DNA of 32,000 nt. Origin: Candidatus Saccharimonadota bacterium (GTDB lineage Bacteria; Patescibacteriota; Saccharimonadia; Saccharimonadales; Saccharimonadaceae). Shown here piece after piece: positions 1 to 31,875 of the stretch; position 1 is the stretch's first letter; every line of letters begins with the position of its first letter. The notes beneath the pieces were generated by a model. That model was not told where the DNA came from. It worked only from the letters and a program-made list of their open reading frames with translations, and did no database searches. Made by a program: the position numbers and the translations under genes. Location of the stretch: positions 330,001 through 362,000 of the forward strand of contig JAIUPJ010000001.1 of assembly GCA_020160975.1 (NCBI GenBank), written 5' to 3'.

Positions 1-33
1 ACGAGATGCTCTAGCCAACTGAGCTAATCACCC
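1..33 (-). tRNA. tRNA, 5' half only (cut by window start); isotype undetermined
   Basis: Reverse complement reads GGGTGAT-TA-GCTC-AGTTGGCTA-GAGC-A-TCTCG: acceptor 5' strand, D-arm and the start of the anticodon stem. Confidence 0.7.
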
Positions 34-69
34 ACAATGATATAAGACTAAATTATTAAGATACTTTTT

Positions 70-194
70 CTCTGGGCTCGACCCACCTTCGGCGGGCCCG
101 CGATTTCACGATTGAAAGCATAGGTTTTATCGGAAAGTCGCCTTGCGAACTGCTACCAGCAGTTCTCACTCTAGCCAACTGAGCTAAGCGCCCA
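70..194 (-). ncRNA. Candidate chimeric element copy A: tRNA 5'-half look-alike fused to a conserved 69-nt core
   Basis: The reverse complement starts GGGCGCTTAGCTCAGTTGGCTAGAG, which resembles an acceptor strand plus D-arm. It then runs into the core at 102-170, shared with 20820-20888. There is no anticodon arm and no complementary 3' acceptor strand. Strand and ends are not established. Confidence 0.4.
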
Positions 195-15977: not shown

Positions 15978-15994
15978 TGGTGGAGCTGCCGGGT
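15978..15994 (-). repeat. 17-nt exact copy of the ssrA 3' end (att-like)
   Basis: tggtggagctgccgggt is identical to 16173-16189 and lies 195 bp downstream of the real tmRNA terminus. Confidence 0.9.
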
Positions 15995-16172
15995 GAGGGT
16001 TGCCCGTGTGGAGCCGCACGGCAGGAGACGGATTTAAAGCTGTGCTTCAAGTACAGTGAGGCGAGGTTGCGCACATTTGTGCAAACAAATGATGTGCTGC
16101 CTACACCCAGGCGGGCATACAGTAAACGTACGCGAAATAGAAAAGGCTCCATGATACATGAAGCCCTTTCTT

Positions 16173-16549
16173 TGGTGGAGCTGCCGGGTACTGCCCCCGG
16201 GTCCATAAGGTAACCTGCTATACGTCTACGCACATAGTCCTATTCTGAAATTATCGCAGGCCTGCTCGAAATAGAACAAACATACAGACACTTGCGAGCT
16301 GTGAAAAATTTAAATTACGAATGACACAGCAGCATTCGCTATCGATCCTGCTAAATATGACACACTCTAGCTATAGCAGAAATCTGGCAGAGTGCGGCTT
16401 CGCAACTTAAGCGAAAGCTGGCGCTTTTTGCAATGGAGCAAAAAGCTGTGCAAGACGATTGTTTGCAACTATTGATTCTGATTACGTCAGAGGTCGATGC
16501 GCGGTAATAGCCTGTTAAAGTCCTCATGTCGATAGCGTATTTCAGCCCC
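16173..16549 (-). ncRNA. ssrA: tmRNA (transfer-messenger RNA)
   Basis: The reverse complement starts GGGGCTGAAATACGCTATCGAC and ends CCGGG-GGCAGTA-CCCGG-CAGCTCC-ACCA, giving an acceptor stem GGGGCTG/CAGCTCC with G3:U. The internal sequence AATAGTT-GCAAAC... resembles the E. coli resume region. Confidence 0.9.
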
Positions 16550-20567: not shown

Positions 20568-20655
20568 TATATCAGTTATTATCTCTTTTTGTTTGGGCGC
20601 GAAACACTGACGGCTATGATATCCAAATGGATGATAATCCTAGGACTTTCGAATT

Positions 20656-20731
20656 TGGTCGGGATGACAAGACTTGAACTTGCGACCTCGCCACCCCCAG
20701 CGGCGCGCGCTACCAACTGCGCCACATCCCG
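20656..20731 (-). tRNA. tRNA-Pro (anticodon GGG), CCA encoded
   Basis: Reverse complement is CGGGATG TG GCGC AGTTGGTA GCGC G CGCCG CTGGGGG TGGCG AGGTC GCAAG TTCAAGT CTTGT CATCCCG A CCA. Confidence 0.93.
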
Positions 20732-20788
20732 ATATCTTATTATTTTACCACTTGCTGAACGTATACCTAGGGTGGCTCGGCCCTCGCC
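20728..20788. repeat. 61-bp perfect direct repeat, copy 1 (promoter plus first bases of tRNA-Pro)
   Basis: 61/61 identical to 20906-20966. On the minus strand it contains the extended -10 TGGTAAAAT (20742-20750). Confidence 0.95.
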
Positions 20789-20910
20789 CCAGCGGCGCGG
20801 TCACGTTCCGCGACCCCCAGATTTCACGATTGAAAGCATAGCTTTCATCGGAAAGTCTGTTTCCGAACTGCCACTGGCAGTTCTCACTACCAACAGCGCG
20901 CTCGTCCCGA
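20789..20910 (-). ncRNA. Candidate chimeric element copy B: tRNA-Pro 5'-half look-alike, 69-nt core and anticodon-loop-like fragments
   Basis: The reverse complement is TCGGGACGAGCGCGCTGTTGGTAG, then the core (20820-20888), then CTGGGGGTCGCGGAACGTGACCGCGCCGCTGGGG. No T-arm or matching 3' acceptor strand is present. It has its own copy of the tRNA-Pro promoter. Confidence 0.4.
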
Positions 20911-20966
20911 TATCTTATTATTTTACCACTTGCTGAACGTATACCTAGGGTGGCTCGGCCCTCGCC
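20906..20966. repeat. 61-bp perfect direct repeat, copy 2
   Basis: Identical to 20728-20788, offset by 178 bp. Confidence 0.95.
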
Positions 20967-21424
20967 GTCATACTACTATTCTCACATCTCTCCATTATCT
21001 AGAAACCCTGTAGCAAAGTCACGACGGCCGTCACAATTTTGTTACAAATGACGACGCCCTTTTCTCGGAGGTTGACTGAAGTTATGAGAAACATGCCGGG
21101 CCAAAAACGACTCTATTTCGATCCGCCGGGAGACGTGACAATACACAATCCAGTGATTCTATAACGCCGGATCCGAAAATCTCAGACTAAAAAAATAAGC
21201 TTCTCGATGTGAAGCTATAGAAAAATGCAGTTTGTCTCTTGTCTCGAGGCACATGTAAGTCCCAGCCATAGGTCGGACGCTAGATATTCCCCGCATAAAT
21301 GCAAGGTGGGTTCTCTCACATCACCCCAATAGTGGTGATAAATATTGAGATCCCGAATGTATGATGTTAGGAAAATCATACACGTCCTAAATGTCTGGGA
21401 CTACTTTTATTATACTCCTAGTCG

Positions 21425-27760: not shown

Positions 27761-27916
27761 TTCGGTGCGGTGCGTTTATACAACGAAGTCCGAACTTATT
27801 TTGAGCGTGAGGACTGAGCGAAGCTCGCCCCACCAGAAAAACTAATTCTTTGATTATCTTTTTTGAATTTCCCCGCCGAGATTTTTTGCAACTGAAAAAA
27901 ATTAGTCTTTCTGGAC

Positions 27917-31626: not shown

Positions 31627-31875
31627 ATCATTTATTGATTGATTATAGCAAACTACTAGTGGTGGTGCTAGATGAGAGTAAAATTGACTCAGGTCAATAA
31701 GTATCGACCGGATATCGGCTAAAACTCCACCTCGACGATTTGAGTCCAACTGCGCGCCCGACCGAATGCACTCAAGATGATAGCGCTATACTAGCGCCAT
31801 CATCAACTAAAAGCCGTCAAACCATAGATCATGACAGTATTCGACGCGACAATTTGAATCATCGTGTGCAATATC

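Follow-up and report, generated by a model that had tools for sequence, protein, structure and literature searches.

The stretch examined here, hereafter the window, comprises 32,000 nucleotides (nt) of a Candidatus Saccharimonadota bacterium (contig JAIUPJ010000001.1, positions 330,001 to 362,000) and carries genes for 16S rRNA, RNase P RNA, transfer-messenger RNA (tmRNA) and five tRNAs, as identified by ARAGORN and Rfam. At its tRNA-Pro(GGG) locus a perfectly repeated segment, designated P, precedes both the intact tRNA gene and a chimeric element (20789-20909) located upstream on the same, minus strand. Our analysis revealed the chimeric element to be a spare copy of tRNA-Pro, truncated at its 3' end, that hosts a discrete non-coding element of 87 nt, which we call element E (Table 1). 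The chimeric element gave no match to the Rfam tRNA family (RF00005) even at E<=10, and only 20659-20731 scored at the locus (59.2 bits). An open reading frame (ORF) of 115 amino acids (aa) spanning tRNA-Pro and the unit on the opposite strand (20589-20936, +) is almost certainly spurious, since it overlaps RNA genes. Related contigs and loci used for comparison are denoted by L numbers.

Table 1. Coordinates of the tRNA-Pro array and of the second copy of element E in the window
Feature	Position	Strand	Evidence or remark
Intact tRNA-Pro(GGG), encoded CCA	20656..20731	-	ARAGORN; Rfam tRNA 59.2 bits; 76/76 identical to L227 tRNA-Pro
Repeat copy 1 (P)	20727..20788	-	Orthologous P' in L227, ~82% identical
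Copy 1: GGCGAGG (tRNA 39-46)	20788-20782	-	Sequence comparison with L227
Copy 1: turn and antisense GCCGAGCCACCCTAGG	20781-20766	-	Reverse complement CCTAGGGTGG matches 5' flank of L033 unit
Copy 1: promoter region, then first 5 nt of tRNA	extended -10 TGGTAAAAT at 20750-20742	-	Predicted promoter
3' flank of D-arm insertion, CGCGCCGCTGG (tRNA-Pro 25 to ~36)	20789..20799	-	Direct reading and flank mapping to intact tRNA
Element E, 87 nt, 5'-TGAGAAC...CGTGAC-3'	20800..20886	-	Covariance model R1, 105.2 bits, E-value 8.7e-21
Helix P1 of element E	20883-20876/20872-20865	-	
Helix P2 of element E	20859-20818	-	
Helix P3 of element E	20815-20809/20805-20799	-	
Displaced tRNA-Pro 5' fragment CGGGACGAGCGCGCTGTTGGTAG (positions 1-22)	20887..20909	-	Acceptor and D-stem differ from intact tRNA
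Repeat copy 2 (P), composition as copy 1	20905..20966	-	Extended -10 at 20928-20920, presumed promoter of E-bearing unit
Probable internally deleted E remnant TGAGAATAGTAGTATGAC, 18 nt	20967..20984	-	Abuts GGCGAGG where L227 has full long-type E at 37/38
Terminator-like site	21216-21198		Between upstream unit and preceding gene
Second copy of element E	82..168	-	R1 90.2 bits, E-value 1.2e-17, model match 76-173; between 5' fragment GGGCGCTTAGCTCAGTTGGCTAGAG (193-169) and promoter spacer

An earlier note on this DNA had described the repeat as a perfect 61-bp promoter duplication. The repeat is real and one base longer, the two copies being identical over 62/62 nt with a start-to-start spacing of 178, while zero matches are expected by chance (100 dinucleotide shuffles). 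As also reported there, each copy carries an extended -10 and terminates in the first bases of tRNA-Pro. We read these bases as CGGGA (tRNA-Pro nt 1-5), which lies 10 nt downstream of that motif. The duplicated locus (~6 kb) was found 100% identical in JGI 3300003764 and JGI 3300026303 and 99.985% identical in GCA_036745295.1, and Logan unitigs end within the repeat, as a true repeat predicts; the window may itself stem from one of these assemblies. Given that a typical sequencing read exceeds the 62 nt of the repeat and that the locus is shared by three independent assemblies, assembly collapse or a misjoin as the source of the repeat is very unlikely.

P was found to be more than the promoter it had been taken for. 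Its first 23 nt are tRNA positions 39-46 and a fold-back antisense stretch, both derived from an older insertion in an anticodon loop, so that P consists of three parts: GGCGAGG, which is the 3' flank of that insertion, a turn with the antisense stretch, and the predicted extended -10 promoter. The antisense part, GCCACCCTAGG, becomes CCTAGGGTGGC when reverse-complemented and in this form matches the 5' flank in L033. The extended -10 corresponds to TGn plus 5/6 of TATAAT, 10 nt before position +1; it is retained in P' of L227, and L098 has TGGTTATAAT at the same place. The terminator-like site separates the upstream unit from the preceding gene, and a promoter of its own in P is thus plausible for the E-bearing unit, judging from sequence features. 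GGCGAGG is present both at the start of P and within the tRNA (positions 40-46), a microhomology that would offer a junction for recombination between units. The D-arm 3' flank together with the first bases of P reads CTGGGGCGAGG, as opposed to CTGGGGGTGGCGAGG in the intact tRNA, 4 nt being absent at the 37/38 site. With respect to the two CTGGGG strings previously regarded as anticodon-loop-like fragments, one (CCGCTGGGG, 20797-20789) does derive from tRNA-Pro, being what is left of its anticodon stem and loop, whereas the other (ATCTGGGGGTCGC) corresponds to the conserved GGG junction and P3 stem of element E.

Insight into the history of the locus was provided by L227, a relative in which the neighbouring M50 peptidase is 77% identical to that of the window and which has an orthologous array. 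This array starts with a promoter, CGGGACGAACGCGCAGTTGGTAGCGCGTACGCTGGGG (tRNA 1-37), a long-type E at 37/38 and GGCGAGG with P'; it continues with AGGGATGTGGCGCAGTTGGTAG (fragment 1-22), an E in the D-arm, CGCGCCGCT, a different spacer with TATAAT, and a tRNA-Pro identical to that of the window. P and P' are ~82% identical, while the adjoining intergenic DNA is unalignable, which argues that P is old and under constraint. The two window copies are identical even though P is ~18% diverged from L227, and a recent duplication, unequal crossover or gene conversion between units is therefore required; on this point the suggestion of recent gene conversion in the earlier note is borne out. On the other hand, the reading of the chimeric element as the diverged transcribed part of a tandem duplicate was not supported, as what lies there is the insertion of element E and an old variant 5' fragment. 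The latter, of the CGGGACGAGCGCGC type, matches unit 1 of L227 (CGGGACGAACGCGC), indicating an old variant and not recent decay; the variant recurs in L227 unit 1 (CGGGACGAACGCGCAGTTGGTAG), while relatives free of the unit have the CGGGATGTGGCGCAG form, as in the intact gene. The comparison with sister genomes, which the earlier note had called for, gave a mixed answer. L098, L226, and L229 (77-80% peptidase identity) possess a single tRNA-Pro with no E there, whereas E-bearing units occur in L227, L004, L125, and L033. In the distant Saccharibacterium L004 the junction GGTAG followed by TGAGAACTGCCAGTGGCAGTTCG is also found upstream of tRNA-Pro, and in L033 an E resides in the anticodon loop of a tRNA-Pro fragment.

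Element E belongs to a family that is large and apparently undescribed. A metagenome scan with a 21-nt pattern of P1 (GAGAAYTGCCAGNGGCARTTC) matched at least 119 stretches, and the locus counts given below are drawn from the matches listed. An alignment of 52 short-type copies served as the source of covariance model R1, which in the fetched metagenome contigs returned at least 111 matches at E<=1e-3 in 100 loci, many of them with 2-4 copies. The element measures 87 nt in the window and up to ~200 nt elsewhere, and its layout is 5'-U GA, P1 (GAACUGCC-AGU-GGCAGUUC), GSAAR, P2, GGG, P3-3'. Among the 52 copies P1 (8 bp) is nearly invariant, P2 is long and variable, and P3 (7 bp) has a G.U pair that is kept in 48/52 copies. 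Compensatory changes were detected in 23/33 base pairs; 97% of cells are paired compared to 80% in shuffles, and changes on both sides were counted in 266 cells compared to 62 in shuffles, a score that 0/500 shuffles reach. When the partners were slid as a control, only 25-40% were paired. The kept G.U pair in P3 means that the fold exists only on the given strand, and element E thus shows the one-strand compensatory changes by which structured RNAs are generally recognized. Single-sequence predicted folds of whole units were not informative.

Searches against existing collections returned no counterpart. Rfam 15, in both gathering and E-value modes, contained no family for element E in the window and 22 loci; BLAST against a phage collection gave no match, and against a plasmid collection only a 21-nt chance match in a Streptomyces plasmid. 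Two pattern scans of IMG/VR recovered only coding or chance matches, R1 having no match in the 56 loci of the second scan, and no description of the element was found in the literature searched, sequence strings included. All E-bearing contigs assignable to a taxon look like Saccharibacteria, L033 being an exception in its label only (Parcubacteria). RAGATH-30 (RF03055) was considered and set aside as a chance match, with 17 bits (E-value 2.2) on the window only compared to a gathering threshold of 59.5, and it was not reproduced on five other units. Kink-turn, hepatitis delta virus (HDV)-like, hammerhead, and hairpin-ribozyme readings were dropped by inspection, being incompatible with helices P1 and P3, which covary.

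The above results bear directly on the simplest account of the locus, namely that no special element is involved and that the locus is either an artefact of assembly or a plain tandem duplicate which later underwent neutral decay and gene conversion. The identity of the repeat copies is in line with this account, and the GGCGAGG microhomology could mediate such a duplication. We nevertheless regard it as refuted, given that the supposedly diverged part is a member of a family of more than 110 copies with covarying structure, and that the locus recurs in three assemblies.

The placement of the family follows a number of rules. In most loci with callable tRNAs element E adjoins an intact tRNA on the same strand, with the tmRNA-linked copies as the exception, and most copies are situated either ~80 nt downstream of such a tRNA or 40-60 nt upstream of it. 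Within this data set no copy resides in a sole intact gene; the host is a partial copy beside an intact copy. Two layouts can be distinguished. In layout A an intact tRNA with its terminator is followed, after ~80 nt, by element E and a displaced 3' fragment (from the 3' half of the T-loop to CCA); the 5' side of the element is the 5' strand of the T-stem, preceded by an antisense copy of the variable/T-arm region. In layout B, to which the window belongs, a displaced 5' fragment is followed by element E and by 8-20 nt that continue the tRNA; an antisense stretch frequently comes next, and a promoter spacer then leads to the intact tRNA, which lies 40-60 nt after the element. Mapping of the flanks to the neighbouring tRNA placed the insertion mostly in the T-loop (54/55), with further sites in the D-arm (22-25) and at 37/38 of the anticodon loop. 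Within the hairpin loops of tRNA genes and of the tmRNA gene the element takes up the 5' side, directly behind a G (usually GG or AG), and exactly two nucleotides between G and C (TT, CG or GC) are replaced by an element running from T to C. Concerning the fold-back between flank and neighbouring tRNA, pair counts that allowed G.U gave no information owing to their high background, and duplex energies were used instead; their mean was -19.05 compared to -15.57 kcal/mol in mismatched controls (Mann-Whitney p=2.5e-6).

The tmRNA-linked copies are of particular relevance to the nature of the target. In the window, the variant element is located on the strand antisense to the tmRNA (16173-16549, -), where the GGGT motif occurs, and this antisense placement points to targeting at the DNA level and not to insertion into RNA. 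This variant (15979-16100, +) has a different P1, and 18 nt duplicated from the tmRNA 3' end are fused to it. Its orthologue in L098 (10125-10223, -) has the same arrangement, likewise antisense to tmRNA.

The preference for tRNA loops raises the question of an intron or split-tRNA arrangement, in which the pre-tRNA would lose element E, through self-removal or the action of an enzyme, and a functional paralogue of tRNA-Pro would result. Besides the canonical 37/38 position, the insertion sites do comprise those in the D-, variable and T-loops that are known for archaeal introns. However, in 116 copies analysed with ARAGORN, excision at all offsets produced a tRNA only by joining the neighbouring intact gene, at offsets >145 nt; the calls at short offsets (50-56 nt) in L189 were spurious. 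Excising the element restores no tRNA by itself, and it is thus not an intron in a working gene. Furthermore, the E-bearing copies lack the 3' or the 5' strand of the acceptor, no match to Rfam group I or group II introns was obtained for the window unit and nine other units, and one copy is antisense to tmRNA. An intron is accordingly a very improbable explanation, and we consider it largely refuted.

Evidence that element E is inserted as a discrete module was provided by L113 (480-1250), where three tandem units precede tRNA-Gln and one element is nested in another. Unit 2 of this array presents an empty site (GAGGCGGG-GT-CGCAG), whereas in unit 3 the site is filled (GAGGCGGG-E-CGCAG); the inserted copy begins TGAAAATC (TGAAAATCGCC) and ends ACGTGAC (CGGAACGTGAC), and exactly GT has been replaced. 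In L141 (5150-5950, -) one displaced tRNA-Glu copy contains two copies of the element, and in L142 (5430-6120) one layout-A unit follows another, the terminator being copied in each. Among these three array loci a further subclass of P1, CGAAAACTGCCACGTCGGCAGTTTGAGAG, was noticed.

The genes around the units are of no recurrent type. All-against-all clustering of 442 neighbouring ORFs showed that no protein family recurs in more than 6/107 listed loci, and a Pfam search of 145 neighbouring ORFs returned housekeeping families, with Resolvase in 2/145 and Phage_integrase not among the 25 families listed. No recombinase or cargo adjoins element E in the manner of an attachment (att) site, the spacing between tRNA and element being too short for cargo. 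The features of a miniature inverted-repeat transposable element (MITE) or other derivative of a DDE transposon were likewise not observed, as the ends (TGAGAA.../...CGTGAC) have no inverted repeat and the comparison of empty and filled sites shows a 2-nt loss and no duplication.

These observations also weigh on the possibility that the units are scars of larger integrative elements targeting tRNAs, i.e., phages or islands with a serine or tyrosine recombinase, of which element E would be the end module left after deletion of the cargo. Integrative elements characteristically leave a displaced tRNA fragment next to an intact tRNA that has been restored, and E units do present such a partial duplication of the target tRNA. 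In addition, other tRNAs of the window have displaced 3' fragments without element E, and in L227 and L231 an island with a 575-aa serine recombinase abuts the same tRNA-Pro. On the other hand, the spacing between tRNA and element is constant and tiny in ~85 listed loci, none of which has cargo, and recombinases are not enriched among the neighbours. The far end of the L231 island has neither element E nor a displaced tRNA fragment, the element is missing from the IMG/VR, phage and plasmid collections, and it also inserts into other copies of itself. Integrative scars are for these reasons an improbable origin of the units. As for the island itself (L227 3849-5576, L231 11349-14618), the place of the SDR gene immediately behind tRNA-Pro is taken by the large serine recombinase (Resolvase and Recombinase domains) together with two small ORFs, and the recombinase gene overlaps the 3' end of the tRNA; the arrangement resembles a small integrated island at the same tRNA.

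We favour, with about even confidence, the view that element E is an insertion element of Saccharibacteria, non-autonomous and dependent on structure, which targets the G-rich 5' side of tRNA and tmRNA hairpin loops, is tolerated only in redundant partial copies and builds arrays, its units being probably transcribed from their own tRNA-type promoters. We infer that it is, or was formerly, mobile at the DNA level with the help of a factor encoded elsewhere, and transcription of the units would start from P, as the predicted promoter suggests. The order of events at the locus may be pictured as follows. An old insertion at the 37/38 site of the anticodon loop, now represented by the 18-nt remnant, would have left P as its 3' module, in which tRNA 39-46 and the fold-back antisense stretch are combined with a promoter serving the next copy. 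Then would have come the unit with an element in the D-arm, a second P, and the intact tRNA. Repeated insertion events would yield arrays and nested copies, the window locus being such an array, and the P copies would have been homogenised by recent unequal crossover or gene conversion between units.

A number of observations weigh against this interpretation. There is no linked transposase, integrase or reverse transcriptase, and no trans-acting enzyme was found among the neighbouring ORFs. A strong fold-back is clear in only ~1/4 of the units, and the window unit is without the D-arm antisense stretch. A consensus promoter scan made no call at P, where the -35 is weak, and transcription driven by P is predicted. 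The 18-nt remnant was not detected by model R1, its identity deriving from the comparison with L227. The sampling is biased by a search pattern anchored in P1. Finally, the orthologous copies of the window and L227 show many compensatory differences and copies within one genome are diverged, which fits long-term selection on an RNA no less than it fits a parasite.

The last point leads to the main rival explanation, a domesticated functional small RNA. In this case the unit, a helix derived from tRNA together with element E, would be expressed and stable, with a cellular role tied to the neighbouring tRNA (processing, regulation, decoy or repair); its tRNA parts would reflect origin only, and mobility would be ancient or irrelevant. 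Several results are in agreement with such a role: the strong strand-specific covariation with its conserved G.U pair, the G.U pairs tolerated by the antisense strands, the use of tRNA promoters and terminators that the units appear to make, and the variants of P1 common to the copies of one contig, e.g., both L121 copies (GAAUUGCC). Moreover, the orthologous units of the window and L227 keep structure, promoter (~82% in P) and variant 5' fragment amid unalignable flanks. However, the distribution is patchy among close relatives, with 3/4 of those at 77-80% peptidase identity having no unit at tRNA-Pro; insertion sites vary within the same tRNA; nesting and arrays resemble accumulation and not design; and no function can be named. 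We thus believe that domestication is a possibility to be taken seriously, albeit an unlikely one.

A stronger form of the insertion-element interpretation can be put forward only tentatively. Element E might represent a new class of mobile element dependent on RNA structure, possibly catalytic or guided by the antisense stretch beside it, which writes itself into tRNA and tmRNA hairpin loops by an exact 2-nt replacement while creating a spare partial gene copy, so that the essential gene survives.

Comparison with known systems revealed partial likenesses. Integrative elements that use tRNA genes are likewise directed at the dyad-symmetric arms of tRNA and tmRNA genes; beside the restored gene there remains a partial tRNA that has been displaced, and repeated events give rise to tandem arrays. 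In contrast to them, E units are ~150-250 bp long without integrase or cargo, either the 5' or the 3' fragment may be displaced, and the element is a covarying three-hairpin module with exactly 2 nt replaced and a fold-back antisense stretch. Archaeal tRNA introns, at canonical and non-canonical positions, and split tRNAs also involve insertions that are small and structured, lie in the D-loop, the variable loop, the T-loop or at 37/38, and have been proposed to transpose between tRNAs; the host of element E is bacterial, however, no bulge-helix-bulge motif was identified, its copies are truncated pseudogenes, and its removal restores no tRNA. Bacterial group I introns are RNA-structured insertions in the tRNA anticodon loop, whereas element E has no recognisable P3-P9 core or Rfam match and does not reside in intact genes. 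Group I introns are ~200 nt or more in length, and the 87-nt element is far below the known sizes of group I and group II introns. MITEs, palindrome-associated transposable elements (PATEs) derived from IS200/IS605, and repetitive extragenic palindromic (REP) sequences are, like element E, short, non-coding, multi-copy, hairpin-rich and without an enzyme of their own. They differ from it in that element E has neither terminal inverted repeats nor target-site duplication (2 nt are lost), its end hairpins are dissimilar, and it is strictly linked to tRNA or tmRNA. Finally, integron attC and CTX-phi attP, which are recombination sites of folded single strands, share with element E the conservation of structure over sequence, a strand-specific fold and an inverted copy of the target site beside the insertion, but element E has no R/L box consensus and forms a bulge in the middle of a fold-back helix and not a loop.

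The anatomy of the locus is now concrete and replaces what had seemed an odd promoter duplication. If the favoured interpretation is true, Saccharibacteria carry an abundant, unannotated structured family of ~90-200 nt that remodels tRNA and tmRNA loci, and this non-coding RNA, whether mobile or domesticated, would be of a new kind, having defined ends, 2-nt replacement and no linked enzyme. It would then account for many of the tRNA "pseudogenes", tandem tRNA fragments and contig breaks in assemblies of the candidate phyla radiation, and would provide a bacterial counterpart in the debate on the interruption and splitting of tRNA genes.

Additional observations were made in the remainder of the window. 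A conserved small RNA with its own TATAAT promoter (~21258-21403, -) is flanked by the M50 peptidase gene on one side and the tRNA-Pro locus on the other, and it is present in all Saccharibacteria relatives examined. Its orthologues gave weak matches to 6S RNA (27.5 bits and E-value 0.047 in L227, 20 bits in L125), and it is probably a divergent 6S RNA below the Rfam threshold.

The second copy of element E forms part of a complete unit at 33-193 (-), composed of GGGCGCTTAGCTCAGTTGGCTAGAG, the element, CGAGCCCAGAG (a 3' flank of the T-loop type), a promoter spacer and an intact tRNA (GGGTGATTAGCTCAG...). This tRNA (GGGTGATTAGCTCAGTTGGCTAGAGC...) begins at 33 and is cut off by the start of the window; its acceptor stem is unlike that of the displaced fragment, as is the case at tRNA-Pro. 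After tRNA-Ala (~260-440, -), an antisense T-arm stretch is followed by the sense GGGTTTGG, an unrelated insert of ~75 nt and a displaced GTCCCTGTGCCTC; this insert, which has the layout-A arrangement and a different sequence, may represent a second element class. At 27790-27840 (+) and 31750-31765 (-), tRNA-Val and tRNA-Asp are each followed by a terminator and then by a displaced acceptor 3' end (CTCGCCCCACCA and GGTCGGGCGCGC, respectively) without element E. The tRNA loci of this genome thus appear to have been repeatedly rearranged.

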